This document shows positions 1-22,843 of a stretch of DNA of 57,039 nt, piece after piece (position 1 is the stretch's first letter; each line of letters begins with the position of its first letter). The notes under the pieces are model-generated. The model worked only from the letters and a program-made list of their open reading frames with translations, had not been told where the DNA came from and ran no database searches. The stretch is from positions 1 through 57,039 of IMG/VR virus record IMGVR_UViG_3300007960_000027; one strand, written 5' to 3'. Origin of the DNA: a virus (taxonomy: Duplodnaviria; Caudoviricetes). The translations under genes were made by a program, and so were the position numbers.

Positions 1-129
1 CGCGGCGTCACCAGTTTCCACAGCAGCACAGGGCACGAGGTCGGACAGCGCGCAGCGCGTGGCAGATGTTATACGCCACGTATAACACGTTCGGCCGCGG
101 CATCACCAGTTCCCACAGCAGCACAGGGC
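1..129 (+). repeat. 34-bp direct repeat (1-34 and 96-129, 2 mismatches) flanking a palindrome copy
   Basis: cgcggc(g/a)tcaccagtt(t/c)ccacagcagcacagggc read twice. Confidence 0.9.
68..86. promoter_or_regulatory. 19-bp palindromic element copy 1
   Basis: GTTATACGCCACGTATAAC. Confidence 0.85.
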
Positions 130-242
130 GCTCTACAAGCTAGGCGCGAAGCCGGGTGAAAAATCTACAACTTGTGGGGGGTGCAAAGATTACGCTCAGA
201 GCGTTGCGTCCAACACTACGTGTTGTAGCGAAAGCTACGTGT

Positions 243-270
243 AGCGTAACCCGAATTGAAATTTTGTCAA
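243..270 (-). promoter_or_regulatory. putative leftward sigma70 promoter
   Basis: minus strand TTGACA-16 nt-TACGCT. Confidence 0.45.
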
Positions 271-309
271 CCCCCTCCCTCACGAGTTGTAACAATTCTA
301 CCCAGAGAT

Positions 310-739
310 TGTTCCACAAATAATCCACAACGTGGATGCGTTATACGGCCCGTATAACATTGATTTTACGTAATGTTCCAGTCTACAACCATAGATCATT
401 TGTTCCAATTGTTCCAGTAGCCTAAAAAGAGTGGAACAATATAACCCGTTGATATTAAAGGGAAAAACGGGTATTGTTCCAATGTTCCACAAATTCGAGA
501 AATTGGTAAAAGGTTTGCCGGTTTTCGACTGACGGAATGCACCGCACCTTCGCCGACCCCCCAAAAAGCGTTTCCCCCCTAATAAAGAAAATTTAGGGAA
601 CAATTGGAACATTGGAACATTATACCTCTACTACTACTACTAACTATAAATTTATATATATATATCAGACACTTACACTTCCACCCCTGCGGGCTTGTAT
701 TGTTCCTATTCAAGAATTGGAATTGGAACAATTGGAACA
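310..739. repeat. TGTTCCA/TGGAACA iteron-like cluster with AT-rich tract; candidate replication origin or packaging region
   Basis: 11 exact heptamers (310, 374, 401, 410, 432r, 475, 483, 605r, 613r, 724r, 733r) plus variants; AT-rich tract at about 620-670. Confidence 0.6.
340..358. promoter_or_regulatory. 19-bp palindromic element copy 2
   Basis: GTTATACGGCCCGTATAAC. Confidence 0.85.
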
Positions 740-840
740 TTACGTAATATCAATGACTTAGCATTTTCGGTCCCGATCTCCCATGCAGACCGTGCCTCCA
801 GCTGCGCCCACACGTCCCTCACTGCCTACCCATGCCAGTC

Positions 841-859
841 GTTATACGCCCCGTATAAC
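841..859. promoter_or_regulatory. 19-bp palindromic element copy 3
   Basis: GTTATACGCCCCGTATAAC. Confidence 0.85.
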
Positions 860-909
860 AGCTACCAATACTTACCAGAACTTCACATGAGATTCTCAAC
901 TGAGACATA

Positions 910-938
910 TTGACTCAAACCGTGTTATAACGTACTAT
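910..938 (+). promoter_or_regulatory. putative rightward sigma70 early promoter
   Basis: TTGACT-17 nt-TACTAT. Confidence 0.65.
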
Positions 939-1031
939 ACTACGTATAGTTTGTTTGTTCCCGGGTCTTGTTGACCCACGCTCTTTGACATCGTGATTGG
1001 CTGCGCCTGATGCAGCCCGGCCTAGCTAGGT

Positions 1032-1050
1032 GTTATACGCCCCGTATAAC
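1032..1050. promoter_or_regulatory. 19-bp palindromic element copy 4
   Basis: GTTATACGCCCCGTATAAC. Confidence 0.85.
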
Positions 1051-1121
1051 GCCGATGATGCAGAACCAACCGGCCATTGCCTGTGACGCGCGGCTACGAA
1101 AACACCGCAGCGTGGGCCGCT

Positions 1122-1140
1122 GTTATACGCCCTGTATAAC
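1122..1140. promoter_or_regulatory. 19-bp palindromic element copy 5
   Basis: GTTATACGCCCTGTATAAC. Confidence 0.85.
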
Positions 1141-1254
1141 AGCGTGCAGAAATCAAGAACCAGCAAGCCACTGTATTGGCATCAAGGGAGACGGGAGTTC
1201 CACCCTACAAAACTCGAAGCCCCACGCAGCTATCACACGCGACGGTACGTTGGT

Positions 1255-1460
1255 CCGACGGTATATCCGTCGGGCTATGCCACTTCATACCTAGCCCAGC
1301 CTGCACCCGAGAATGGTGCGGAAGCTGCCGCCGGTTGGTTCGACAAAACACATACGTCAGCATCCGCTGACGTGGGCGACAACAGCTAGGACACGCGGGC
1401 ATCCGCGTGTCTCATGGTGCAGTCGCGCCACCGCATGGCCCGAGGGCCATCGCGCCACCG
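1255..1460 (+). ncRNA. candidate structured leader RNA
   Basis: hairpins at 1255-1273, 1354-1373, 1390-1411 and 1435-1450; no convincing ORF. Confidence 0.35.
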
Positions 1461-1482
1461 AAAAAAGGAGATACAGACACAG

Positions 1483-1641
1483 ATGCACCAGCGATACAGA
1501 TCAACCACGGTGGAGGAGTTCAAAAGCCTCCTTCAGGCAGGGGCAATTCGCCCCGCGTCTCTGGAAGATGTCCACGGGACGCACCACAGCCGGGGGCTGT
1601 ACCGGCACCCCAACACGGGGCAATGGTACGTGGAAGTGTAA
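1483..1641 (+). CDS. hypothetical protein (52 aa)
   Basis: AAGGAG RBS then ATG at 1483, in the frame of ORF 1414..1641. Confidence 0.6.
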   Translation: MHQRYRSTTVEEFKSLLQAGAIRPASLEDVHGTHHSRGLYRHPNTGQWYVEV

Positions 1642-1664
1642 CCGAAACCATCGCAACACGCTCC

Positions 1665-1683
1665 GTTATACGGGGCATATAAC
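1665..1683. promoter_or_regulatory. 19-bp palindromic element copy 6, before RBS
   Basis: GTTATACGGGGCATATAAC followed by AAGGAGA. Confidence 0.85.
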
Positions 1684-1696
1684 AAGGAGACTGAAC

Positions 1697-2179
1697 ATGC
1701 TTAGTACAACAACACAGAACCAGATCGACCAAGAATGGAACCGCAAGGCAGAAGCCTTCGTCACGCTGGCTGACCAGCTGCCCAGCTTGCAGTCTATCAA
1801 GGAAGCCTTTGCGTGGGAGGACAAGCACCCTGTCCACCCGACGACCGACGTGCGGAACGACGCGTTCCGCAACGCCATGAATGCAATCGGGCACAAGGCC
1901 CTGCCGTTCATGGATGCCAAGTATACCTACGTCAGCGACTTTGCGTGGGACGCCGCTGCCTGTGCCGACATGGAGAAGGGGGACACGCTGTTCCTCCTTA
2001 TCCACGAGTGCGGCACGCGGTTGTTCACGCCGATAACGCAGGAGCCTGACCACGTTCAGCGCAAGCTGGAGGAGGTCATCGAACACGTCGATGTGTGCAG
2101 CACCCGCAAGGCTGTACTGCGCGTGGTGCGTGAGCACTTTGACACCTTCACGGTGTCGGTCGTTTACAACCGCATCTGA
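1697..2179 (+). CDS. hypothetical protein carrying a 17-codon insert copied from the AAA gene
   Basis: AAGGAGA RBS, ATG 1697 (MLSTTTQ), in the frame of ORF 1313..2179. Confidence 0.8.
   Translation: MLSTTTQNQIDQEWNRKAEAFVTLADQLPSLQSIKEAFAWEDKHPVHPTTDVRNDAFRNAMNAIGHKALPFMDAKYTYVSDFAWDAAACADMEKGDTLFLLIHECGTRLFTPITQEPDHVQRKLEEVIEHVDVCSTRKAVLRVVREHFDTFTVSVVYNRI
1754..1803 (+). repeat. 50-bp copy of 4667-4716 (1 mismatch)
   Basis: gccttcgtca(c/a)gctggctgaccagctgcccagcttgcagtctatcaagga. Confidence 0.95.
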
Positions 2180-2195
2180 TCGAAACCAGCGCCCC

Positions 2196-2214
2196 GTTAT
2201 ACGGGGCGTATAAC
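2196..2214. promoter_or_regulatory. 19-bp palindromic element copy 7, before RBS
   Basis: GTTATACGGGGCGTATAAC. Confidence 0.85.
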
Positions 2215-2233
2215 ATGAGAAAGGAGACCAGCA

Positions 2234-2473
2234 ATGGCTGGAGAACGTATGACGCGTTACTTTTTGTTCGTGTGCACGCACTACTACCCCCGCGGCGGGA
2301 TGGACGACTGCGAAGGCGTGTTCGACACGCTTGAGGCAGCCAAGGCTGCCGCAGTTGCCGCTGACGAACGCTACGTAGACGTCAGCATTGCCGAAATCGG
2401 CGAGAATGTGGTCGAGCACTGGATGCAGGAAGATGGCTGGGTCAGCAAGCCATTCGTGCGGGAGCAGGAGTAA
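2234..2473 (+). CDS. small phage hypothetical protein (YYPxGG motif)
   Basis: AAGGAGA RBS; alternative start at 2249. Confidence 0.75.
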   Translation: MAGERMTRYFLFVCTHYYPRGGMDDCEGVFDTLEAAKAAAVAADERYVDVSIAEIGENVVEHWMQEDGWVSKPFVREQE

Positions 2474-2477
2474 CACC

Positions 2478-2654
2478 ATGGCTGGAGAACTTATGACCTT
2501 CGCAGCACTCCCACAGGGTGCGAAATTTTTCTTCAACGGCAACTGCTGCATCAAGCGCAGCAGCGCCACGGCCGAACTCGTTGACTACAAGCGTACCTTT
2601 TACTTCGGGAAGAAGGACGTGGTCACTGTCGGCTGGCCGGGAGATGACGAATGA
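2478..2654 (+). CDS. hypothetical protein
   Basis: GGAG RBS, ATG 2478 (MAGELMT); ATGA overlap with next gene. Confidence 0.7.
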   Translation: MAGELMTFAALPQGAKFFFNGNCCIKRSSATAELVDYKRTFYFGKKDVVTVGWPGDDE

Positions 2655-2857
2655 CACCACACTGTATAACGTGTGGTGACGAGTACCCTCACGCGCGCCG
2701 CGCGTTGGGGTACCAGACCTGCCTCGCCTGTGGCGAAGCGGCCGCGGCAACTGTCCGCGCTGGGTGGTGCGTTGCACCCGTGGCGCACAAACAGGGTGCC
2801 ACACTCGTGACCAACAAGGCCGATCTCAAAGGCCTCAACAAGTACAGCGCCGACTAA
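2651..2857 (+). CDS. C4 zinc-finger protein, TraR/DksA-like
   Basis: CITCGDEYPHARRALGYQTCLAC spacing matches the DksA/TraR C4 finger. Confidence 0.6.
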   Translation: MTPHCITCGDEYPHARRALGYQTCLACGEAAAATVRAGWCVAPVAHKQGATLVTNKADLKGLNKYSAD

Positions 2858-2878
2858 CGGCGCTGCAACCAACGCCCC

Positions 2879-2897
2879 GTTATACGGGGCATATAAC
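2879..2897. promoter_or_regulatory. 19-bp palindromic element copy 8, before RBS
   Basis: GTTATACGGGGCATATAAC. Confidence 0.85.
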
Positions 2898-2914
2898 ATC
2901 TCAGGAGAGCTATC

Positions 2915-3814
2915 ATGACTTTTACTTTCGATAACGCACCGGCACCGCAGGGTGCCACTCTTCAGTCCTCGACCATGCTGGTCGAACTGAGTATCTCGGT
3001 CTGGACTGCGCGCAAGCTGGACAAGCGCGCGTCCCGTGAATGTACGGACCGGGCGAATGCCGACAAGGGTATGGCCAACGTCCACAAGAAGCTGCTTGCC
3101 TGTGACGAGCTGACCGCCATCCAGAAGTTCGCGGCAAACGCGCGCACCTCGACGCACTATGCCATGACGCTGCCGTGGTCCGACAGCGGGCTGCGTATGC
3201 TGCCGACGTCGAATTATTTCGACTATCACAAGGCCATGACTGGCCTCCAGACCGAGTTCGATCGGCTGGTGCAGAAGTTCCTCGCCCGGTACGAGTGGCT
3301 CATCAACGAGACGCAGATCAAGCTGGGCGACATGTATAACCCGGCCGAGTACCCGTCGCTTGACAGGATGCAGGCCAAGTTCGGCTTTCGCCTCAACTAC
3401 ATCCCACTGCCGGAGGCAGGGGACTTCCGCGTGGATATTGGTAACCAGCAGGCCGAGGAGTTGCGGGATCAGTACGCCTCGTTTTACGAAGCGCAGCTGA
3501 CCCGGGCGATGGGCAACCTGTGGTCCCGTACATACAAGACGCTGACCCACATGTCCGAGCGGCTGGACTACGCTGACCACGAACAGAAGAAGGTGTTCCA
3601 TGACACGTTGGTGTCCAACGTGCTGGACCTGATCGACATGATGGAGACCATGAACATCACCAACGATCCGAACATGCAGCTGCAAAGCCGCCGCCTCAAG
3701 ATGGCGATGCAGGGTATCTCACCGAACGCGTTGCGTGAGGACGAGGGCCTGCGCCGTGACACCAAGCGTGCGGTGGACGAGGCCCTCAAGGCCCTGCCGT
3801 CGCTCGACTTCTAA
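2915..3814 (+). CDS. DUF3150-like protein
   Basis: 299 aa helical protein with LSISVWTARKLD, TLPW and EYPS motifs, next to an AAA/vWA pair. Confidence 0.6.
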   Translation: MTFTFDNAPAPQGATLQSSTMLVELSISVWTARKLDKRASRECTDRANADKGMANVHKKLLACDELTAIQKFAANARTSTHYAMTLPWSDSGLRMLPTSNYFDYHKAMTGLQTEFDRLVQKFLARYEWLINETQIKLGDMYNPAEYPSLDRMQAKFGFRLNYIPLPEAGDFRVDIGNQQAEELRDQYASFYEAQLTRAMGNLWSRTYKTLTHMSERLDYADHEQKKVFHDTLVSNVLDLIDMMETMNITNDPNMQLQSRRLKMAMQGISPNALREDEGLRRDTKRAVDEALKALPSLDF

Positions 3815-3837
3815 TACAATACGTCAACCAGCGGGGC

Positions 3838-3856
3838 GTTATACGCCCCGTATAAC
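3838..3856. promoter_or_regulatory. 19-bp palindromic element copy 9, before RBS
   Basis: GTTATACGCCCCGTATAAC. Confidence 0.85.
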
Positions 3857-3886
3857 AAACCAAATCAAACCAAACGGAGAACTACC

Positions 3887-4975
3887 ATGACTAATTCTAT
3901 GTATTACCTCGGCCTCGACCAGACCGCAAATCTCATCAAGGCCATTGGCCACAAGCGCACCGTGCTGGCGCAGGGTCACATGGGTACCGGCAAGTCCTCG
4001 CTGCTCAAGATGCTGGCCGAGATGCTGCCGACGCACACCCCCGTGTACTTCGACTGTACGACCAAGGACTTGGGTGACCTCATGTTGCCACGCATCGCCG
4101 AGGTGGATGCAGAGACACCGTATGTGTCGTATGCTCCGAACGAGGAGTTGGGTATCCACCACAACACCCCCGTGATCGTCATGCTTGACGAGTACGGCAA
4201 GGCTAACCCCGCTGTGAAGCAGGGCCTGACCGCCTTCATGTTGGAACGTCGGCTGGGTAACAACGCGTTGCACCCTGACAGCATCGTGTTCTGTACCACG
4301 AACCTCGGGGCCGAGGGTGTTGGTGACCTGCTTGTTGCACACCAGCGCAACCGCATCATCCCTGTCACGGTGCGGAAACCCAGCAACGTGGACTGGATCG
4401 AATGGGGCATCAACAACGGGATCGACCACAGCCTGTTGGGCTGGTGCCGTGATAACCCGCAGCTGTTCGCTGACTTCACCGAGATCAAAGACCCTGACGA
4501 GAACCCCTACGTCTTCCACCCACGTGCGCAGCGTGCTGCCTTCGTCACTCCTCGTTCGCTCGAATGCGCGTCTGACATCCTCAAGACGCGTGAGTTTCTT
4601 GACGACCAGACGGTGGTGGCCGGCCTGATCGGTGCCATCGGTGATCGTGCGGCGATGGACCTGATGGCCTTCGTCAAGCTGGCTGACCAGCTGCCCAGCT
4701 TGCAGTCTATCAAGGACGACCCGAAGAACGCTACCGTGCCGACCAGCGCCGCAGCTGTGTGTATGGTGGTGTATCGTACCATGGCGGCCCTCGAACGTGA
4801 CTGGCTCGACGCGTGGATGGACTACATGGTGCGGCTGCCCAAGGAGGCGCAGGGTATGTTCGCCAACGGCGTCCGCACCCCGAAGTATTCCAAGCAGTCC
4901 ATGGTGATGACCAACACCAAGTTCACCAACTGGGCGATGCAGAACAGCTATCTCTACGCAGCTGACATCAAGTGA
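3887..4975 (+). CDS. AAA+ ATPase (MoxR/dynein-related)
   Basis: Walker A GHMGTGKS, Walker B VMLDE, sensor TTN, TPRS motif. Confidence 0.85.
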   Translation: MTNSMYYLGLDQTANLIKAIGHKRTVLAQGHMGTGKSSLLKMLAEMLPTHTPVYFDCTTKDLGDLMLPRIAEVDAETPYVSYAPNEELGIHHNTPVIVMLDEYGKANPAVKQGLTAFMLERRLGNNALHPDSIVFCTTNLGAEGVGDLLVAHQRNRIIPVTVRKPSNVDWIEWGINNGIDHSLLGWCRDNPQLFADFTEIKDPDENPYVFHPRAQRAAFVTPRSLECASDILKTREFLDDQTVVAGLIGAIGDRAAMDLMAFVKLADQLPSLQSIKDDPKNATVPTSAAAVCMVVYRTMAALERDWLDAWMDYMVRLPKEAQGMFANGVRTPKYSKQSMVMTNTKFTNWAMQNSYLYAADIK

Positions 4976-4981
4976 GGACAC

Positions 4982-5137
4982 ATGTCGAACGATGATCTGA
5001 AAACGACCCAGCTGATACTGGACCTCAAGGAGATGCTCCGCGTCTACGTAGACGGGAAGTCTCACAACGAAACTCGTGGCCAAGCTTTGGCCACGATACG
5101 CGAAGCAAATGAATGGCTATATGGAGAGAAGAAATGA
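4982..5137 (+). CDS. hypothetical protein (51 aa, not in ORF track)
   Basis: GAGGA RBS, MSNDDLKTTQ...YGEKK, ATGA overlap with next gene. Confidence 0.6.
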   Translation: MSNDDLKTTQLILDLKEMLRVYVDGKSHNETRGQALATIREANEWLYGEKK

Positions 5138-5415
5138 CGAAGTACAAGCGCAAAGAGGGCAAGCGAAACACGCGGTGGACCGACGAGGACCTCGACCTGT
5201 TGCGCACACTGGCTGCGCAGGGTGTGTCTAACTGGGACATCAGCAAGCGTCTCGACCGCTCGCCCGGTTCAGTCAGTGCGCAGCTGTACCTGATGCGTAA
5301 GCAGGACGAGGCTGACCGGTTCGTCGATGCCGTGATGGAGGACTATCACGAGGTGGAGGTCACGCCGAAACCGTCGCTGTGGCGGCGCATCATGAACATT
5401 ATACGACGCGTATAA
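5134..5415 (+). CDS. HTH DNA-binding protein (Myb/GcrA N-terminal-like)
   Basis: RWTDEDLDLLRTLAAQGVSNWDISKRLDRSPGSV. Confidence 0.7.
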   Translation: MTKYKRKEGKRNTRWTDEDLDLLRTLAAQGVSNWDISKRLDRSPGSVSAQLYLMRKQDEADRFVDAVMEDYHEVEVTPKPSLWRRIMNIIRRV

Positions 5416-5416
5416 C
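5398..5416. promoter_or_regulatory. 19-bp palindromic element copy 10 (variant), overlapping a stop codon
   Basis: ATTATACGACGCGTATAAC followed by AGGAGA. Confidence 0.75.
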
Positions 5417-5431
5417 AGACAGGAGAACAAC

Positions 5432-6646
5432 ATGTTTATGGGAAAACTGACACCCGAGCAACGGGTGCAAAAAGCCGTGATCGACATCATGGCCAAGGAT
5501 CGCTACGCCGCACTGGCTGGCATCCTGATGATCGGCGAGAAGCGGGTGGAGACTGACCCCGCCAAGTGTCCGACAGCATACACCGACGGTAAGAACGTGG
5601 TGTTCGGTGCCGAGTTCATGGATGGCATGACCGACGCAGAGTTGCGGTTCCTCGCTATCCACGAGGAGAAGCACAAGATGTATCGCCACCTGACAACGTG
5701 GGAGTGGATGTGGAAGGAGGACCAGCAGCTTGCCAACCAAGCGTGCGACCACGTCATCAACATTGAGACAGTGGACGAGAACCCCGACGGCTTCGCCACC
5801 ATGACAGGCAAGCTGGCCGGGGGGTGCTGCGACTTCAAGTACCGTGGGTGGGATGCCGCGCAAGTATTCCACGACCTCAAGCGCAAGCGTGACGAGCAGG
5901 GCGGTGGCAGTGGCAGTGGCGACGGTGACTACGACGGCAGCTTCGACCAGCATGGCTGGGAAGAAGCGCAGGACATGACCGCCGAGGAGAAGCGCGAATT
6001 GTCCCGTGCCGTGGACGAGGCCATACGTCAGGGTGTCTTGCTTGCTGGCAAGGCCGGGTCCGGTGGCGACCGCAGCTTCGAGGAACTGTTGACCCCGCAG
6101 GTCAACTGGCGTGACGCGCTGCGTGAGTTTGTACAGAACACATGCGCTGGGGCTGACTACTCAACGTGGCGCAAGCCCAACCGTCGGTACATCGGGATGA
6201 ACATCTACATGCCCTCCGGTGTCAGCGAGACAGTGGGCGAGATGGCCGTGCTGATCGACACGTCAGGTTCTACCTACGCACCGGGTGTGCTGCCCGCCTT
6301 CATGTCCGAGGCCAAGGCCATAGCCGAGACTGTCCGACCGGAGCGGGTGCACATCATTTACTGGGACACGGAGGTGTGTCAGGCTGAGGTGTACGAGCAG
6401 GACGAGTTGGACAAGATGATCTCCAGCACGCAGCCCAAGGGCGGTGGTGGCACCGACATCACCTGCGCCATCGACTACATGGCCGAACATAACATCAAGC
6501 CGCAAGCGTCCATCGTACTGACCGATGGGTATCTGTTCGGCGGCTGGGGGTCGTGGTCCCACCCTGTGCTGTGGTGCGTGATCGACAACAAGAACGCCAA
6601 GCCCGACACGGGCAAGGTCGTGCACATTCGTGCGAGTGACATGTGA
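5432..6646 (+). CDS. DUF2201-type putative metallopeptidase with C-terminal vWA domain
   Basis: TAYTDG, HEEKH (HExxH), N..CDHVIN, MIDAS DTSGS, GGGGTD, LTDG. Confidence 0.85.
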   Translation: MFMGKLTPEQRVQKAVIDIMAKDRYAALAGILMIGEKRVETDPAKCPTAYTDGKNVVFGAEFMDGMTDAELRFLAIHEEKHKMYRHLTTWEWMWKEDQQLANQACDHVINIETVDENPDGFATMTGKLAGGCCDFKYRGWDAAQVFHDLKRKRDEQGGGSGSGDGDYDGSFDQHGWEEAQDMTAEEKRELSRAVDEAIRQGVLLAGKAGSGGDRSFEELLTPQVNWRDALREFVQNTCAGADYSTWRKPNRRYIGMNIYMPSGVSETVGEMAVLIDTSGSTYAPGVLPAFMSEAKAIAETVRPERVHIIYWDTEVCQAEVYEQDELDKMISSTQPKGGGGTDITCAIDYMAEHNIKPQASIVLTDGYLFGGWGSWSHPVLWCVIDNKNAKPDTGKVVHIRASDM

Positions 6647-6661
6647 TACCAACCACGCCCC

Positions 6662-6680
6662 GTTATACGGGGCGTATAAC
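6662..6680. promoter_or_regulatory. 19-bp palindromic element copy 11, before RBS
   Basis: GTTATACGGGGCGTATAAC. Confidence 0.85.
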
Positions 6681-6695
6681 ACAAGGAGATGAGCA

Positions 6696-7727
6696 ATGGC
6701 TCGTTACTACACTTCGATCAACAGCTTCGCCGAGGCCGAAGCGTTCTATAACAAAATCGTCCCTTTGCGTGGCGCGAAGAACAAGGACAAAGACATCCGC
6801 CCGCTTGGCGATCGACGTCGCAAGTGGGAACGCATCGTCAAGGTAAGCAACAACTGCTACGCCCTGACTAGCGGCTGGCATCCGGGCGACCCGGATTACT
6901 GGATGCGTGATAGCAAGGTTGATGGTGAGCCTCCTATCAGCTGGATGGCCAAGTATTCGCCCATCGTGTGGCGTAGGCATAAGGATGGAACCGAGACCGT
7001 CACCCTGCGTAACGGTACAGGACCCGGGTACCATACCAGCGTGTATGAGTTCCTGCGGCGTCACCTACCGCGATACATGAACTTTCTGCAAACCCGTGCC
7101 GGACACCAGCGCATCCACGTGTATGGCACTAGCTACTACTTGGCGAAGGGTCGCACCATACCGAAGCAATACGTTGCTCGCGCGTTGAAGTACGACTCGG
7201 GGCGTGAGTGGTACCAGACCACTGACGACAAGGCGTCTCTTACCTTCAAGGTGTTGGACGGACGCTATGAACTTGTTGGCGAGGCGCTGACGGTACCGAA
7301 GCCGCCCAAGAAGCGCGTAGATAAGGCCCGCAAGGCAGCCCTCAAGCCGCACATCGACGCGTTCCGTGACTGGGCTATAGCTATCCTGCCCATGATGCCC
7401 ACTGACTGGCAGTCCGAGTTCGAGGTGCTGAACCAAGCCCGCACCGTACCTATCGGAGACTTCCGTCTTGGGTACTCTGTTGGCTGGGCCTTCAATGCCA
7501 ACAACTCAGAACTAGCAGAGCAGATCATCCAGCACGACCAGCACGCGCTTCGCGTTTTGTTGGCGCTTCACATGCGTGCGACGGTTCGCTCTGCGCTTGA
7601 GGATAAGCACGGGAGAGACACGAACACCACGCACCTGCACCTGAATGACGGTTTCCAGACCGCCTATAACCGCTGGGCCAACAAGACCCTCGGACTTATC
7701 AATACAGTAAAAGGAGATGCGGAATGA
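6696..7727 (+). CDS. hypothetical protein
   Basis: 343 aa ORF, AAGGAGA RBS. Confidence 0.8.
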   Translation: MARYYTSINSFAEAEAFYNKIVPLRGAKNKDKDIRPLGDRRRKWERIVKVSNNCYALTSGWHPGDPDYWMRDSKVDGEPPISWMAKYSPIVWRRHKDGTETVTLRNGTGPGYHTSVYEFLRRHLPRYMNFLQTRAGHQRIHVYGTSYYLAKGRTIPKQYVARALKYDSGREWYQTTDDKASLTFKVLDGRYELVGEALTVPKPPKKRVDKARKAALKPHIDAFRDWAIAILPMMPTDWQSEFEVLNQARTVPIGDFRLGYSVGWAFNANNSELAEQIIQHDQHALRVLLALHMRATVRSALEDKHGRDTNTTHLHLNDGFQTAYNRWANKTLGLINTVKGDAE

Positions 7728-8587
7728 CCGCAGAATGGATGGAAGTAGACGACCTCAAGCCCGTGCATGAGGACACGCACCCAAACCTGTGGGCCTTTAT
7801 GCGTGACGTTCAGGCCAAGATACCCGGCGTACAGTTCGGACGTCGCGGCGGTTCGTCGGCGAGCCGTGCCGTGTTTGCGTACCTGCCCGGAGACCACGTG
7901 ACTATAGGCCGTATTGGCTACGGCGATTTTAAACGGGGGGGTAGGGGTATCAACGAATACATCGTGGAGTCCGACTGTATTAAGAATTGCAAGTACAGCA
8001 GCTCCAGTACGCAGCACCACATGGCGATGACTATCCACCGTGACAAAGCGGTGAAGAATGCACAGAAATTTCTGCGTCCAATGTCTACCGCTGTAACTGC
8101 GATGCGTTTATTTGCTGGGGCAAACGCGCTTGCGCAGGATAGAGTATCCAAACTCCGGGACGCAGTTGCAAAGGTCGAGTCGAAGGTGTTTACGACGTCC
8201 TTGTCTAGATACGGTTCAGGTGCCGTACGCATACGACTGCTGGCTGAAATGCAACGTCTTGTAGACGAAGACCACACGTTCATTGATCCATCGTTTCGTG
8301 ATGACCTTGTCGCTATGCTTACTGCACGTGCCGAGTATGAAATGTCTAGCGAAGGCGTGGAGTTTACGTTCGTGGGCGTCAAAGACACACCGCTCGGTCG
8401 ACAGATAGAAGTAGTGGACTTGGATAGATACGGCGCGTGCAACGACGACGTACGTATCTTCACCGAAGCTGATGTGCCTACTGACCTTGCAGGTAAAGTG
8501 GCCGTACTGTCCATGCTTCAGCCTCGCGAATACGTCGATGGTGTAGGTTGTCGTCGTACCAATCGGGCATTCTATGTCATACGGTGA
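7724..8587 (+). CDS. hypothetical protein
   Basis: 287 aa ORF, RBS, ATGA overlap. Confidence 0.8.
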   Translation: MTAEWMEVDDLKPVHEDTHPNLWAFMRDVQAKIPGVQFGRRGGSSASRAVFAYLPGDHVTIGRIGYGDFKRGGRGINEYIVESDCIKNCKYSSSSTQHHMAMTIHRDKAVKNAQKFLRPMSTAVTAMRLFAGANALAQDRVSKLRDAVAKVESKVFTTSLSRYGSGAVRIRLLAEMQRLVDEDHTFIDPSFRDDLVAMLTARAEYEMSSEGVEFTFVGVKDTPLGRQIEVVDLDRYGACNDDVRIFTEADVPTDLAGKVAVLSMLQPREYVDGVGCRRTNRAFYVIR

Positions 8588-8819
8588 GCTGTCGTACCGT
8601 GTGGAGTATCTGCCTGACAATGAACACGTCAATGTGCTATGTTTTACACCTAAACATCTTGCATTGATACCGGATGGCAAGTATCGTATAGATGATCTTC
8701 CGGACGTGTTGCGAAGCAAGCTGGCGGTTCTGGCCATAATGGAGGCCCCACCTCCGCCTGTTGATGTGGCGGGCGTGGGCCAGCGCGTAGGCGAGCGTGC
8801 GTTCTGGGTGTACATCTAA
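8574..8819 (+). CDS. hypothetical protein, paralogous to the C-terminus of the upstream gene
   Basis: shared pattern D.P..L..K.AVL...V.GVG.R...RAF(Y/W)V. Confidence 0.75.
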   Translation: MSYGELSYRVEYLPDNEHVNVLCFTPKHLALIPDGKYRIDDLPDVLRSKLAVLAIMEAPPPPVDVAGVGQRVGERAFWVYI

Positions 8820-8834
8820 GTCTGTACGGGGCGT

Positions 8835-8853
8835 GTTATACGCCCCGTATAAC
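8835..8853. promoter_or_regulatory. 19-bp palindromic element copy 12, before RBS
   Basis: GTTATACGCCCCGTATAAC. Confidence 0.85.
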
Positions 8854-8878
8854 ATCACCAGTTACATGGAGACGGCGA

Positions 8879-9208
8879 ATGGGAATGACGCCCGAAGCAA
8901 AGGTTAAGAAGGTTGTCGTACAGCAACTCAAGGACATGGGCGCGTACTATTTTTACCCGGTGACGGGTGGCTATGGCGGCAGCGGGGTGCCTGACATCGT
9001 TGGGTGCTACAACGGTCTGTTCTTTGGCATCGAATGCAAAGCCGGGAACAATAAGCCAACCGCACTGCAACAGAAAAACATCGACTCCATTGTAACCGCA
9101 GGTGGCCTGTCATGGGTCGCCAATGAGAAAAACATGCGCATGACCGAAGAAATCCTGCGCGCAGCAGAAAGGATCGCATCTGAAAATAACGGAACCATGG
9201 GGGACTAA
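8879..9208 (+). CDS. VRR-NUC family nuclease
   Basis: TPEAKVK, GVPD, GIECKA, PTALQ motifs. Confidence 0.85.
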   Translation: MGMTPEAKVKKVVVQQLKDMGAYYFYPVTGGYGGSGVPDIVGCYNGLFFGIECKAGNNKPTALQQKNIDSIVTAGGLSWVANEKNMRMTEEILRAAERIASENNGTMGD

Positions 9209-9301
9209 CCTACGGGAGTTCCTACTCATCATGTTCCAACACGACATCGTGTGGAAACCAAACAAGCCCGGCGATACGCCACCTTTTTAAAGGATCAAAT
9301 C

Positions 9302-9982
9302 ATGACCGATACCGCATACGAAGCAATAACAATCACCAACGAGATACACACAGGCGCAGCCTTTGGTATCCTGCACGGCACCGGCCGCAACTGTTACATC
9401 CCTTCTTCGGTTATGCATGCCAGCCGTTGTCGTCCCGGAGACGTGGTGGACGCCGTGCTGGTGGAGAACCCGAGCCCCGACCCGGATATTCGAAACCGTA
9501 CACCCTACATGGTGCGCTTCATCAAGCCGCCTGTGGGTGAGACACCCCCGGCCGCCCCGCAGAGACCAGTGCAGCTTGAACTTCCTCTGGAGCCCGAAAC
9601 GCCATCGCAGCTGGCACGGGAAATCATAGCCAAACTGGGTGGCGAAGCCCCAGCCCCAGCCCCAGCCCCAGCCCCAGCCCCGGTACCTAGCTTGAAAGAG
9701 CGTGCCGCCAAGCATGTCGAAGCGACCATGGCTGCCGGTGGGGTCTGGCGGTTTGCGACTATGTTTGCTGATTTCATGCGGGCAGAAGGCAAGCCCGGCG
9801 CAGATCGTGCGCGTCACATGGACGAATACTGGGCCGTGGCGCATGCTATGCGCCATGTGTTCGACACCGATCGCTGTGCAAAGTGGACTCTCTACAGCAA
9901 GGCGTCGAACCAAAAGGCTTCGAAAGAGTGGTATAGCTGCCACCCTCAGACCATCGACGTAGCGGAGTTTGAAGATGAGTAA
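9302..9982 (+). CDS. hypothetical protein with Pro-Ala linker
   Basis: AAGGA RBS, ATG 9302; ccagcc tandem repeat. Confidence 0.75.
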   Translation: MTDTAYEAITITNEIHTGAAFGILHGTGRNCYIPSSVMHASRCRPGDVVDAVLVENPSPDPDIRNRTPYMVRFIKPPVGETPPAAPQRPVQLELPLEPETPSQLAREIIAKLGGEAPAPAPAPAPAPVPSLKERAAKHVEATMAAGGVWRFATMFADFMRAEGKPGADRARHMDEYWAVAHAMRHVFDTDRCAKWTLYSKASNQKASKEWYSCHPQTIDVAEFEDE

Positions 9983-10466
9983 GTTACCAACCGACGAAGA
10001 ACAGCGTGTGTGGGCGTACCTCCTACAGCATCGGGACGCCCGTGCGTTTGAAGTGGCTGAGGCCGTGGGCGTGAGTGAAGCCCTCGTTGCATCCATGATG
10101 GACCGCATCTCCTCGGACAACTGGCGGGAGGAGGTAACCCCTCCCGCTACCAGTGGCGTCAAGTTCGACACTGACAAGCTGCCGATGCACCTCCTGCCGC
10201 CGGAACTGTTGGCGGGCACCGCAGCGGTGCTGGACTTTGGGGCCCGCAAGTACACTCCGCGCAACTGGGAACTCGGCATGGAGTGGCACCGCCCGTACTC
10301 CGCCTTGATGCGGCACATGTGGGCGTGGTGGGGCGGCGAGGACTTCGACCCCGAGACCGGCCTGCTGCACACGTGGCACGCGGCCTGCTGCATCGCGTTC
10401 CTGATGGCCTACGAGCAACGCAAGATCGGAACCGACGACCGACCGAAAGGAGCTATCAATGACTGA
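9975..10466 (+). CDS. dATP/dGTP diphosphohydrolase domain protein (DUF5664) with N-terminal HTH
   Basis: GVKFDTDK, GARKY..RNW, ALMRH, DPETGLLH..HA motifs. Confidence 0.85.
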   Translation: MSKLPTDEEQRVWAYLLQHRDARAFEVAEAVGVSEALVASMMDRISSDNWREEVTPPATSGVKFDTDKLPMHLLPPELLAGTAAVLDFGARKYTPRNWELGMEWHRPYSALMRHMWAWWGGEDFDPETGLLHTWHAACCIAFLMAYEQRKIGTDDRPKGAIND

Positions 10467-10872
10467 CCGTCGCAGCTCGGGCCACCGAATAAACTATCCG
10501 GAACATGGCATCCCGCTGGACTACGCCAAGACAGACCTTCAGCGTGAGCGGATCGCCATGCTTAATGACTGCAAGGGCGACGTGGGGCTGGCCGCAGCGC
10601 GGCTCGGCATCGACCCGCAGGGGCTTTACGATGTGCTGTCTCGCCTGCGTGACCGTGGCGTTCTGCCCGCAGTCCCGAATGGATGCCCCGCGAACCGCGC
10701 GCTGCAACACCGGAGGTTTTCGTTGGGCAGCTTGCACGCCACCCTTCCCAAGCAGCCCCTCAAAGTGCGCAAGTGGGTTGCCCAAAACGTACCGGAGGGT
10801 GGCACTGTAGTTGACCTGCTGTGGTCTGTCCTGCTGGACGTTGTCGAGGAAGAGGAGGACGCCAGTGGCTGA
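10459..10872 (+). CDS. hypothetical HTH protein
   Basis: AAARLGIDPQGLY helix-turn-helix; AGGAG RBS. Confidence 0.65.
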   Translation: MTDRRSSGHRINYPEHGIPLDYAKTDLQRERIAMLNDCKGDVGLAAARLGIDPQGLYDVLSRLRDRGVLPAVPNGCPANRALQHRRFSLGSLHATLPKQPLKVRKWVAQNVPEGGTVVDLLWSVLLDVVEEEEDASG

Positions 10873-11159: not shown

Positions 11160-11427
11160 CGATCTGGTGAAGCGGCTGCGTGCAACGTGTAGCTGCAACA
11201 TTGATAACACCCCCTGCTTGGCAGAAGAGGAGTGTCGTGTTGCCCAAGAAGCAGCCGACCGCATCGAAGAACTGGAGGCCCAACTGGCGAAGACAGTTGA
11301 TCTTATCGCAGAGCTTGCTGCGGGACCGAGTTGGGGAGAGAGCGTCATGGGCTGGGTAAATTCCATGGTAATAAAGGCCCGCACCACCCTCGCAGAACTG
11401 AAAGGAAAGACCAATGACCAAAGGTGA
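11152..11427 (+). CDS. hypothetical protein (MSDDLVKRLR...EAADRIEELE type)
   Basis: common phage coiled-coil pattern; overlaps neighbours. Confidence 0.7.
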   Translation: MSDDLVKRLRATCSCNIDNTPCLAEEECRVAQEAADRIEELEAQLAKTVDLIAELAAGPSWGESVMGWVNSMVIKARTTLAELKGKTNDQR

Positions 11428-11671
11428 ATACCGTGTGGGGATCACGTTTAACCCCGGCAACAACGACATGGTGGGACAGATCAAGCGTAAGGCTGCTGAT
11501 CTGATCGACCTGATCGAAAGTGTCTCTGTGCCTGATGTCGATACCCTAGAAAGCGCACGGCACAGCAGCGAGGTGACACGCCTCAAGGCACTCGCGCAGA
11601 CCGCCATCGAAGACGGTGCGATGTGGGCGGTGAAAGCTGCCACGAAGCCCGTACCAACAAACAATGACTAA
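11414..11671 (+). CDS. Acb2/Tad1-like helical hairpin protein, possible cyclic-nucleotide sponge
   Basis: two-helix protein ending RLKALAQTAIEDGAMWAVKAA. Confidence 0.5.
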   Translation: MTKGEYRVGITFNPGNNDMVGQIKRKAADLIDLIESVSVPDVDTLESARHSSEVTRLKALAQTAIEDGAMWAVKAATKPVPTNND

Positions 11672-15960: not shown

Positions 15961-16230
15961 ATGCCGTACGTCAACAAACCACGCCCCTACAAGAAAGAGT
16001 GGCAGCAAGAGAAGGCCCGTAACGAGAAGGCCGCCCGCGCCGAACGGGCCAAGGCACGGCGCGCTTTCGACAAGAAGCATGGTAAGAAAGCCCGAGAAGG
16101 GCTGGACCTCAGCCACCGCAAGGACTTGTCCCGTGGTGGCGATAACTCGGACGGCGTGCGTCTGGAACGCCCAAGCGCAAACCGCGCGCGTGGGGGTGCC
16201 TTGAGCAAGCCACCTAAAAAGAGGGGTTGA
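15961..16230 (+). CDS. small HNH-like protein
   Basis: DLSHRKDLSRGGDN...SANR. Confidence 0.65.
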   Translation: MPYVNKPRPYKKEWQQEKARNEKAARAERAKARRAFDKKHGKKAREGLDLSHRKDLSRGGDNSDGVRLERPSANRARGGALSKPPKKRG

Positions 16231-16232
16231 GC

Positions 16233-16571
16233 ATGGACTACTCGATATTCGAGATGCTCGGCTTCTCTCCCTTCAACAAAGAGAAGGACCGTCCGGTGCA
16301 GCTGCCGGGGGGTCAACAAGCTACCGAGTATACCGCAACCGACCAGCTCGAAGATGGTTCTTGGATTGTGTATCCGCAGATATGGTTCGACCAAGAAGGA
16401 CAACCCCGTTGGCTGGGGGCAAACGCGCTAGAGATGGCGCTCATGCACGAAGCCAACACAGGGAAGCGCCTGCCACGGTTCGCTACCAGAGAAGAAGCGG
16501 ATGCGTTCTCCCAAGGTCGCTCGGCGGCAGGCGGCGGCAAGCGCGGCGGCATAGCAGATATAAGAAAATAA
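16233..16571 (+). CDS. hypothetical protein
   Basis: ORF filling the operon gap, GAGG RBS. Confidence 0.65.
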   Translation: MDYSIFEMLGFSPFNKEKDRPVQLPGGQQATEYTATDQLEDGSWIVYPQIWFDQEGQPRWLGANALEMALMHEANTGKRLPRFATREEADAFSQGRSAAGGGKRGGIADIRK

Positions 16572-16586
16572 TCGCCGGAGAACCAC

Positions 16587-18575: not shown

Positions 18576-18772
18576 TGGCCCCCACGTACGCCACAATCAA
18601 AGAAATCGCGGACTACTTCAAAGTGTCCGTGTCCACCATTCGGAACTGGGTTCGCAGCGGGACCATTCCGGAAGACACCTACATCAAGGCCGGAGAGACC
18701 TACCGCTTCAACCTTGATCGGGTAGAGAAAGCGCTACTGCGCAGCAACGAGTCGAAGGAGAACGACAAATGA
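18575..18772 (+). CDS. excisionase-like (HTH_17) DNA-binding protein
   Basis: TIKEIADYFKVSVSTIRNWVRSG..P...YRF. Confidence 0.85.
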   Translation: MAPTYATIKEIADYFKVSVSTIRNWVRSGTIPEDTYIKAGETYRFNLDRVEKALLRSNESKENDK

Positions 18773-19686
18773 CAATGGACCTTTCTGCGTTCGAGGGGAA
18801 CGCTCTGGTATCGTCCGACGCATTCAAGCGGATGATGGAGGTGAACAAAAGCCTGTCTGGTGGTGAGGGGGGCACCGGACGCCGCATCAGCATCAAGGGC
18901 GGTCGCTTCCGTGAGATCGTCAACGGCGAGCAGGTGAACGTCAACAGCTCCGGATCGCTGAACTTGGTCGTGCTGGGCACGTCCAAAATCGGACGTACCT
19001 ATTTCGAGGGTACATACGATCCCGAGAACCCGACAGGGCCAACGTGCTGGTCTGCGGACAGTGAAACTCCCGCCGCGGAGGTACCGGCCGATAAGCGTAA
19101 GGCCTCCAAGTGCCGTGACTGTCCGATGAACATCAAAGGTTCCGGACAGGGTAATAGCCGGGCGTGTCGGTTCAACCAGCGGCTGGCCGTGGCCCTCGAA
19201 GGTCAGTATGAGAAAGTGTATCAGCTGCAGCTGCCCGCCACGTCGCTGTTCGGCGAGGCCAAGGACAACAAGTACGGCATGCAGGCCTATGCACGGTTCA
19301 TGAGCGCCCGTGGGTTCCCGGTCAGTGCTGTGGTTACCACCGCCTACTTCGATGAAAACAGCGAAACGCCGAAGCTGTTCTTCAAGCCGGCCCGCCCCCT
19401 GAGCGATGAGGAGTTGACGCAAGTCGACACCCTGATGCGTGATCCGGACGTGGAAAAGGCAACCACACTGACCGTGTATCAGCGCGACGAAGGTGAAGAC
19501 AGTGCTGGCTCCAAGCCGTATAACCCGAAGTCGCAAGGGTTTGAGGTTGACGACACGCCTGCACCGAAGGCCGAACAATCGGTCGAAAAGCCGGTCGAAG
19601 AGCCGACCAAGCGCGAGGCCAAGCCCGCCGCGGCAGCAGAACCGCAACAGCTTAGTTCCCTCGTGTCTGCATGGGATGACGAATAA
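18769..19686 (+). CDS. putative single-stranded DNA-binding protein
   Basis: Cys-containing core, acidic tail ending WDDE, located before the primase. Confidence 0.55.
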   Translation: MTMDLSAFEGNALVSSDAFKRMMEVNKSLSGGEGGTGRRISIKGGRFREIVNGEQVNVNSSGSLNLVVLGTSKIGRTYFEGTYDPENPTGPTCWSADSETPAAEVPADKRKASKCRDCPMNIKGSGQGNSRACRFNQRLAVALEGQYEKVYQLQLPATSLFGEAKDNKYGMQAYARFMSARGFPVSAVVTTAYFDENSETPKLFFKPARPLSDEELTQVDTLMRDPDVEKATTLTVYQRDEGEDSAGSKPYNPKSQGFEVDDTPAPKAEQSVEKPVEEPTKREAKPAAAAEPQQLSSLVSAWDDE

Positions 19687-19692
19687 TTTAGA

Positions 19693-19714
19693 GGCGGGGC
19701 GTTCGCGCCCCGCC
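19693..19714. other. 9-bp GC hairpin with TTCG loop
   Basis: ggcggggcg-ttcg-cgccccgcc; no U-tract. Confidence 0.6.
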
Positions 19715-22809: not shown

Positions 22810-22843
22810 CCCGCAGGTGCCCCCCGCACCTGCGGGTTTTTTT
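22810..22843 (+). terminator. rho-independent terminator ending the rightward arm
   Basis: cccgcaggtgc-ccccc-gcacctgcggg followed by T7. Confidence 0.9.

Follow-up and report, generated by a model that had tools for sequence, protein, structure and literature searches.

A covarying GC-rich hairpin overlaps a repeated palindrome ahead of early genes in an uncultured phage lineage

Results

A GC-rich hairpin overlaps the palindrome at gene-proximal copies

The IMG/VR virus record IMGVR_UViG_3300007960_000027 (Duplodnaviria; Caudoviricetes) is a phage sequence of 57,039 bases with an estimated completeness of 92%, and this whole stretch, hereafter the window, carries repeated copies of a short palindrome, GTTATACG-N3-CGTATAAC, many of them directly ahead of early genes. 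At most of these genes the bases upstream of the palindrome are complementary to its central spacer and form with it a hairpin rich in G-C pairs (GC hairpin) that takes up the left arm of the palindrome. Flank and spacer covary both within and between five genomes, and do so only at gene-proximal copies and only on the upstream side, bearing out the suspicion of an earlier note, made from the sequence alone, that intrastrand structure is under selection here. The structure, of less than 30 nucleotides (nt), is thus under selection in an uncultured phage lineage, and the covariation is strong enough to show it.

When the window was searched for GTTATAC-N5-GTATAAC with up to two mismatches, 12 copies were found, all at 68-8853, against 0.04 expected, and 12 copies were attained in none of 100 shuffles. 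The stem of the element is 8 bp long and closes on a 3-nt loop, and the centre reads CGSSSCG. Besides the control-region copies (Table 1) there are seven gene-proximal copies, at 1665, 2196, 2879, 3838, 5398, 6662 and 8835, lying 0-19 nt ahead of a Shine-Dalgarno sequence. All of the genes concerned are on the + strand; the loop reads GGG at 1665, 2196, 2879 and 6662 and CCC at 3838 and 8835. The upstream flank is complementary to the spacer in six of the seven copies, reading CGCCCC at 2190-2195, 2873-2878 and 6656-6661, CGCTCC at 1659-1664, CGGGGC at 3832-3837 and TACGGGGCGT at 8825-8834; all of the flank letters given in the earlier note are present in the sequence.

Folding with ViennaRNA, with z-scores calculated against dinucleotide shuffles, returned the flank/spacer hairpin at these six copies as the structure of minimum energy and also as the centroid (z -1.8 to -3.4), copy 5398 being the exception (z +0.8). 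The second hairpin that had been proposed for the gene-proximal copies is therefore found at six of seven in the window. Its GC stem does close around TAT, but it is longer than had been described, because the left-arm pairs G1-C7 and T2-A6 lengthen the helix to 7-9 bp, and to 13 bp at 8835, so that the loop is a triloop of TAT/UAU (TTA/UUA at 8835). The GC hairpin and the palindrome hairpin share the left arm, and hence overlap and exclude each other as had been claimed. The further claim that control-region copies and copy 5398 largely lack the hairpin is correct for 5398 and mostly true of the control copies, with exceptions at copies 68 and 1122. Copy 68 forms a flank/spacer helix of 6-7 bp (CGTGGC...GCCACG) around an 11-nt loop and, at -10.6 kcal/mol, is the sole control copy in the window to reach -10 kcal/mol or below. 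At copy 1122 a 4-bp version is visible by eye; the -7.9 kcal/mol fold of this copy is a separate hairpin lying within the flank.

The GC hairpin is also energetically dominant. With RNA parameters it lies at -10.5 to -17.3 kcal/mol in the window compared with -6.0 kcal/mol for the palindrome hairpin (-0.9 for copies with a mismatched arm), and at -9.2 to -20.5 kcal/mol over the five genomes, leaving an energy gap in its favour of 4.5-12.6 kcal/mol in the window and of 4-13 kcal/mol over the five genomes. With DNA parameters the corresponding window values are -5.2 to -12.1 against -4.7. Transcription would complete the GC helix before reaching the right arm. Neither the Shine-Dalgarno sequence nor the start codon is more than weakly paired in any of the seven window folds, and both lie outside the two helices. 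A test of strand at 20 sites gave 12 G-U pairs on the + strand and 8 on the - strand, with a mean energy difference of -0.48 kcal/mol (p 0.23), and the single G-U pair pointed out in the earlier note is diagnostic neither of RNA nor of a particular strand. The idea that the mismatches within the palindrome are all wobble pairs on the - strand was rejected, inclusion of pair 8-12 giving 7 against 3 by hand count.

Flank and spacer covary within and between five genomes

Four further genomes sharing the palindrome were obtained from protein and pattern searches. G001 is a close relative, with 16 palindrome copies and a VWA protein 97% identical to that of the window; G002 is a fragment with four copies; G003 is complete with terminal repeats and has nine copies at up to one mismatch and 11 at up to two; and G004, with a VWA identity of 66%, has one copy. 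A metagenome scan with a protein query added only two close relatives. Once a two-mismatch chance hit had been dropped, 44 sites were listed from the five genomes, and deduplication left 26 gene-proximal and 13 control sites, two of the sites having been reclassified by inspection (G003 2316 to control and G003 3137 to proximal). Segments comprising a 16-nt flank and palindrome positions 1-14 were folded and scored against a threshold of -10 kcal/mol, which was reached by 19 of the 26 gene-proximal sites but by only 3 of the 13 control sites (Mann-Whitney p 5e-4). For the proximal sites the mean was -11.98 kcal/mol, compared with -6.29 kcal/mol when flanks were swapped among sites of different spacers, and none of 5000 permutations matched the observed mean; at control-region sites it was attained in 3867 of 5000. 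Flank permutation attained the observed mean energy in 24 of 5040 cases for the window alone, in none of 5000 when G001 was left out (21 sites) and in 4 of 5000 for G003 alone (nine sites). The mirror hairpin, composed of spacer, right arm and downstream flank, reached -10 kcal/mol at none of the 26 sites, and its observed mean equalled the permuted mean.

The earlier note had proposed looking for covariation in a larger alignment, and this was found in an ungapped alignment of the 26 proximal sites in which those with inserts were counted as unpaired. The covariation score was 0.244 against 0.127 in shuffles (0/500), slid controls reaching 0.155 at most, and double-change cells numbered 20 against 11.3 in shuffles (0/500). 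At three pairs C-G and G-C alternate, in 4-6 rows each. A covariance model built on the hairpin returned ungapped 38-nt matches only, on both strands, leaving sites with inserts unaligned, and its alignment was not used.

Exchanges of G-C for A-U and of C-G for G-C are also seen between orthologous sites. At 8835 the window has TACGGGGC/GCCCCGTA and G001 has TACGAGGC/GCCTCGTA. At 6662, ahead of a gene of 343 residues, the window pairing CGCCCC/GGGGCG corresponds to a CGCCTC flank with a G-U pair in G001 and to CACGGC/GCCGCG, with two flips and one mismatch, in G004; the G002 ortholog has no helix. Within G003 the stems differ by gene, five in all: GTGCC/GGCGC, GAGGC/GCCTC, GGGGC/GCCCC twice with different inserts, and GGGTC/GACCC. 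Flank and palindrome are separated by inserts of 0, 2, 3 or 6 nt, and the register also varies. At two sites, the G001 DUF3150 gene and G003 3137, the GC hairpin is a separate one that directly adjoins the palindrome and does not overlap it. The former site, the ortholog of window 2879, carries CCCCGC-TGAT-GCGGGG. The GC hairpin thus behaves as a module. The distance from the upstream open frame to the palindrome is at most 5 nt in four of the seven hairpin-less proximal sites and at least 15 nt in 14 of the 19 sites with a hairpin, a weak argument from available room because genes were called by longest open frame only.

The palindrome arms are conserved as sequence

Within a genome the arms of the palindrome are near-invariant, and 96.6% of their positions pair; four of the eight pairs never vary, and the sole double change, GTTATGC...GCATAAC, occurs at two G003 sites. 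Distant relatives carry different palindromes at the equivalent location, with the outer GTTA...TAAC retained. A marine lineage has GTTAGTCCTAGGACTAAC, the palindrome of relative L174 is GTTAGGGATTCCCTAAC, and G004 has GTTAGT-N5-ACTAAC and GTTAGC-N5-GCTAAC in addition. Arms that are fixed within a genome but spell another word in each lineage fit recognition of sequence by a co-evolving factor and not selection for a hairpin per se, and the palindrome is most likely a sequence-specific site, read as duplex DNA by a putative symmetric factor. A search for regulators gave weak helix-turn-helix hints only, in the open reading frames (ORFs) 5113-5415 and 10459-10872, and no candidate was assigned. 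No sigma-70 promoter was recognized at the palindromes, where there is no -35 hexamer at 17 bp and the promoter scan lists none, and the right arm of relatives (GACTAAC) is unlike a -10 hexamer.

Three observations touch on the distribution of the palindrome. Before its helicase gene, at 16225-16575, the window has an extra ORF of 114 residues without a palindrome, the Shine-Dalgarno sequence being the same, whilst in G001 and G003 a palindrome lies directly ahead of the helicase gene (comparison locus L193:19541-19562), so that palindromes are gained or lost along with gene content. At 290-760, among the control-region copies, an AT-rich run is accompanied by clusters of GGAACAAT/TTGTTCC repeats in both orientations, the whole resembling an origin of replication or other protein-binding array. 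Outside phages, the word GTTATACG-N3-CGTATAAC stands upstream of an operon for an AbrB/MazE-type antitoxin and a Doc-family toxin in Hyphomicrobiales in 29 of 69 genome hits (loci L196-L261, e.g. L247:4000-4018 and L208:6967-6985), with one copy per genome in all three genomes checked. The match may be fortuitous, or may point to the host or to a host factor. No AbrB-type antitoxin gene was found in the phage genomes, and the palindrome of the GTTAGTC lineage was present in 1 of 401 alphaproteobacterial genomes, with three hits for a reversed control.

Terminator features and genome context

A canonical intrinsic terminator was considered for the GC hairpin and rejected. The GC stem of 7-13 bp soon after a stop codon is of the appropriate kind, but the tail that follows, UAUAACA, has 2 U in 7, and none of the six sites was returned in a terminator scan. 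The hairpin is therefore not a canonical terminator for want of a U-tract, though the phage has such a terminator of its own (Table 1). Comparison of bases 1-10000 with Rfam 15 gave two chance-level matches (E 0.72 and 0.77), neither at the elements. Literature searches with the motif letters returned only papers unrelated by title, and nothing on this phage group came from a search for conserved inverted repeats in the intergenic regions ahead of early phage genes, supplements (with possible N4-like promoter tables) falling outside these searches.

Table 1. Positions of hairpins, palindrome copies and the terminator in the window
Feature	Positions	Strand	Context
Control-region palindrome copies	68-86, 340-358, 841-859, 1032-1050, 1122-1140	.	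Non-coding; no gene directly downstream
GC hairpin GCTCCGT / TAT / ACGGGGC, one G-U pair	1660-1676	+	Overlaps palindrome 1665-1683; upstream of ORF 1697-2179
GC hairpin GCGCCCCGT / TAT / ACGGGGCGT	2189-2209	+	Overlaps palindrome 2196-2214; stop codon 2177-2179 upstream, ORF 2234-2473 downstream
GC hairpin GCCCCGT / TAT / ACGGGGC	2874-2890	+	Overlaps palindrome 2879-2897; upstream of DUF3150 gene 2915-3814
GC hairpin, flipped stem, GCGGGGCGT / TAT / ACGCCCCGT	3831-3851	+	Overlaps palindrome 3838-3856; upstream of AAA ATPase gene 3887-4975
Palindrome without GC hairpin	5398-5416	+	Stop codon of ORF 5113-5415 inside right arm; upstream of VWA/DUF2201 gene 5432-6646
GC hairpin ACGCCCCGT / TAT / ACGGGGCGT	6655-6675	+	Overlaps palindrome 6662-6680; upstream of ORF 6696-7727
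GC hairpin, 13 bp, TGTACGGGGCGTG / TTA / TACGCCCCGTATA	8823-8851	+	Covers most of palindrome 8835-8853; upstream of ORF 8879-9208
Palindrome-free intergenic GC hairpin GGCGGGGCG-TTCG-CGCCCCGCC, 9-bp stem, UUCG loop	19693-19714	+	6 nt past stop of ORF 18769-19686, before primase gene; no U-tract
Canonical intrinsic terminator, 11-bp GC stem then seven T	22810-22846	+	Convergence of + and - gene blocks

Genes on the + strand, at approximately 1.4-22.5 kb, encode a DUF3150 protein, an AAA ATPase, a DUF2201/VWA protein, DNA polymerase, exonuclease, helicase and primase, and genes on the - strand, from 57 down to 22.8 kb, encode the portal, structural proteins and an ORF of 2453 residues. DNA of the phage is present at freshwater and estuarine sites. 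No DNA-level match to any named phage was found in the phage collection, and the nearest named relatives of the AAA ATPase are from N4-like phages at approximately 25% identity. The giant ORF (22842-30203, - strand) is the first in the late block and has no Cys, an HExxH motif and proline/alanine repeats; its middle part matches LPD39 polyvalent proteins weakly, and its C-terminus is of the PLxRFG/DarB-like type seen in the approximately 60-kb podophages PEp14, Skulduggery, PBC5 and Atu_ph08. From the gene order of N4 we take its position to be that of the virion polymerase gp50, and we know of no virion polymerase in the approximately 60-kb podophages with a PLxRFG/DarB-like protein. ORFs 6696-7727 and 7724-8587 had no family match, and no polymerase motifs were seen in them by eye.

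Several other features of the window were noted. One, a small ORF, of the pair 11414-11671 and 9969-10466 contains an Acb2/Tad1 hairpin domain (E 7e-13) and is a candidate anti-defence sponge, and the other contains the N-terminal domain of a dATP/dGTP diphosphohydrolase (E 2.5e-34). The latter domain is not indicative of a 2-aminoadenine genome, an idea that was rejected because a PurZ homologue is absent from four of four related genomes. A 50-nt stretch at 1754-1803, within ORF 1697-2179, is 98% identical to 4667-4716 within the AAA ATPase gene (repeat family D6). Two adjacent small genes share approximately 20 starting bases (2234-2256 and 2478-2500), and the segment between these repeats is missing in G001, consistent with a deletion between them.

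Discussion

The GC hairpin covaries, stands on one side of the palindrome only and is the stronger of the two folds; that it acts in RNA, and the role it has there, we infer. The account that we tentatively favour, with somewhat less than even confidence, is of a composite intergenic cassette in which a recognition palindrome read as duplex DNA is fused to an intercistronic stem-loop of the sense RNA. Most early genes would be preceded by such a compact two-part cassette, consisting of the 19-bp palindrome and a GC-rich stem-loop made up of 5-8 flank bases located 0-6 bases from the palindrome, the left arm as tip and the free spacer as 3' strand. The stem would be free to vary because it uses the spacer of the palindrome. 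Wherever the stretch is single-stranded the GC hairpin would form in place of the palindrome hairpin, and its site of action would be the sense transcript, in which the intercistronic stem-loop may close off the upstream cistron as a block to exonucleases, possibly with pausing or weak attenuation. By stopping the palindrome from folding beside the ribosome site, it may also keep the A/U-rich right arm and the Shine-Dalgarno sequence single-stranded. The palindrome-free GC hairpin at 19693-19714 in the same phage, likewise without a U-tract, supports this reading of the element as a transcript feature. In the available excerpts of one account, stable CUUCGG-type hairpins are common in phage intergenic regions, and a 5' hairpin of T4 stabilizes its transcript (PMC8948821).

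A number of observations weigh against this account. Seven of the 26 proximal sites have no GC hairpin, and by eye it is absent from most sites of the GTTAGTC lineage and of G004. An AT-rich relative, L056, with the same GTTATAC arms keeps an A-run flank for either spacer orientation. Relatives that mostly do without the hairpin indicate that it is dispensable. In G003, where gaps measure 36-54 nt, the hairpin still lies on or against the palindrome and not near the stop codon, indicating a coupling to the palindrome that a plain 3'-end stabilizer would not need. The strand asymmetry, finally, is not significant and does not single out the sense strand.

It is possible, though unlikely, that the structure acts in DNA, either through competition between overlapping inverted repeats in supercoiled or transiently single-stranded DNA or as an N4-type hairpin promoter controlled by the flank. 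Extrusion of the GC repeat, with its AT-rich centre TTATA, would destroy the left half-site of the palindrome, and the preference for the GC hairpin persists with DNA parameters in the window. The coupling to the palindrome in the wide G003 gaps and the lack of a strand signal keep this possibility alive, since an asymmetry that is not significant leaves DNA structure compatible. For an N4-type promoter in particular there is the AAA ATPase, nearest to those of N4-like phages, and the giant virion protein, which presumably occupies a gp50-like position and has no Cys in 2453 residues. Absence of Cys is a reported trait of the virion polymerases of LUZ7 and LIT1/PEV2 (PMC3715699, in part), and the architecture of the palindrome fits the portion of an N4 review that describes a GC-rich heptamer between inverted repeats, a 3-nt loop and copies at the early end (PMC4496689). 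Against such a promoter, no RNA polymerase was detected, PF00940 having no match in the window, though the controls were silent too, and on sequence comparison the giant ORF has no match to the N4 polymerase chains in PDB and resembles LPD39 and PLxRFG-type proteins instead. Four sites have GGG loops and two have CCC loops in the same gene direction, so the template strand does not always carry a purine in the middle of the loop. The palindrome at G001 19545 is followed immediately by the Shine-Dalgarno sequence, which would be lost from a transcript starting 11 nt from the centre of the loop, and the window helicase gene keeps its Shine-Dalgarno sequence without any palindrome. The likeness of the palindrome to N4 early promoters is thus formal only while no phage RNA polymerase is found.

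A further version of the DNA account, which we consider improbable, makes the cassette a DNA-topology device in which supercoil-driven extrusion of the GC repeat removes one half-site of an operator-like palindrome, an on/off gate for each early gene. In a bolder variant the factor reading the palindrome could be a host protein, the same 16 specified bases occurring at the single-copy operator-like site of the AbrB-type antitoxin/Doc toxin operon in Hyphomicrobiales. With such a device each early gene would carry its own structural gate for the palindrome-reading factor.

Less likely than action in DNA generally, if a little more credible than such a gate, is a leaky terminator joined to a promoter, the GC hairpin partly stopping transcription from upstream and the palindrome restarting it, in the manner of the PeSL sequences of T4-type phages, which serve as points of recombination too. 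Gene junctions do carry a stem-loop and then a conserved motif, with the hairpin invariably upstream and an A/T-rich tail (TATAACA); gene content also differs between the window and G001 at or beside a palindrome at 1436-1640 and 16225-16575. These, however, are 2 of approximately 7 breakpoints between the two genomes, the others lying away from palindromes, and the tail with its 2 U in 7 compares poorly with the seven T of the phage's own terminator. Nor does the palindrome resemble a sigma-70 promoter, lacking a -35 hexamer and having in relatives a right arm that is not a -10 hexamer.

It is also improbable that the hairpin is a neutral by-product without function, in which inversion of the palindrome flips the spacer, template switching copies the spacer into the flank and duplication spreads the cassette. 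A single inversion does convert GGGGC to GCCCC in one step, and some cassettes may be mutual copies, to judge from an AACCA motif shared upstream of G002 6311 and of five of the seven window sites. Template switching, named as an alternative origin in the earlier note, is a possible mutational route, but it leaves unexplained the control copies that have the same kind of spacer and no hairpin (3/13 against 19/26 with one) and the downstream side, which never has one. Five different stems at different G003 genes, the variable register and insert, and two hairpins that are fully or almost fully separate from the palindrome also argue against a mere by-product. Inversion combined with template switching could well account for the joint changes of flank and spacer.

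Least probable is the two-state switch that had been suggested for each ribosome-binding site, in which the two hairpins alternate in the messenger and set translation downstream, perhaps through a ribosome at the upstream stop codon covering the flank: the helices do exclude each other, and at 8835, 6662 and 2196 the GC helix starts 3-9 nt past the stop codon, where a terminating ribosome would presumably reach its 5' strand, but at 1665, 2879 and 3838 it starts 16-18 nt past, the alternatives are not of comparable stability, the stronger helix is complete first, no terminator is formed, the palindrome lies at a variable 0-19 nt from the Shine-Dalgarno sequence, and neither helix reaches that sequence or the start codon. 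Energetic dominance together with a ribosome site outside the helices leaves the switch unsupported, and the element serves as a caution that mutually exclusive helices are not automatically a switch.

The composite cassette would place two signals on the same bases, a palindrome conserved in sequence and a hairpin conserved in structure, whereas a repeated motif ahead of early phage genes is commonly taken for a promoter, an operator or a terminator, with a single function. It offers a small and clean object for testing cistron insulation, or gating of a regulator site, in phages.

Comparison with known systems

Attenuators of the RAT (BglG/SacY) and trp types also have two overlapping, mutually exclusive leader helices. 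There the terminator is preceded by a weaker, protein-stabilized helix, whereas in the present element the strong helix is the leading one, there is no U-tract and nothing downstream depends on the outcome. The stoperators and start-associated sequences of mycobacteriophages resemble the palindrome in being many copies of one short motif in small gaps before genes, but to our knowledge they are asymmetric and have not been reported with an overlapping covarying hairpin. An intrinsic terminator shares the GC-rich stem of 7-13 bp, the short loop and the position soon after a stop codon, and differs in its U-tract.

N4 hairpin promoters are alike in their inverted repeats around a GC-rich heptamer, their 3-nt loop and their place at the early genome end, and the present phage has distant early genes in common with N4-like phages (PMC4496689, PMC3715699, excerpts of each). 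The N4 promoters have stems of 4-7 bp and three copies, compared with 8 bp and 12 copies here, where the loop sequence is not tied to the direction of the genes. A virion RNA polymerase was not detected here, and the overlapping GC hairpin has no N4 counterpart in those excerpts.

The nearest described counterparts are the PeSL cassettes of T4-type phages and the stable hairpins found between phage genes. PeSLs, as far as the available portions describe them, are small composite terminator/promoter sequences implicated in insertions and deletions (PMC4122927; also PMC2839356). They resemble the present element as a short, repeated, composite intergenic motif before early genes, in which a stem-loop accompanies a conserved sequence and some differences in gene content fall at the motif. 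They differ in that the conserved part is here a 19-bp palindrome unfit for sigma-70, with which the stem-loop, lacking a U-tract, shares its bases, and the phages are unrelated. Hairpins of the CUUCGG type and that of the T4 gene 32 leader are assigned roles in transcript stability and processing in the accessible part of PMC8948821 (citing Tuerk et al. 1988). In the present phage the loop is UAU, dictated by the left arm of the palindrome, and a second conserved motif is coupled to the hairpin, but like those hairpins it is small, very stable and intergenic, and is kept by its pairing and not by the sequence of its stem.

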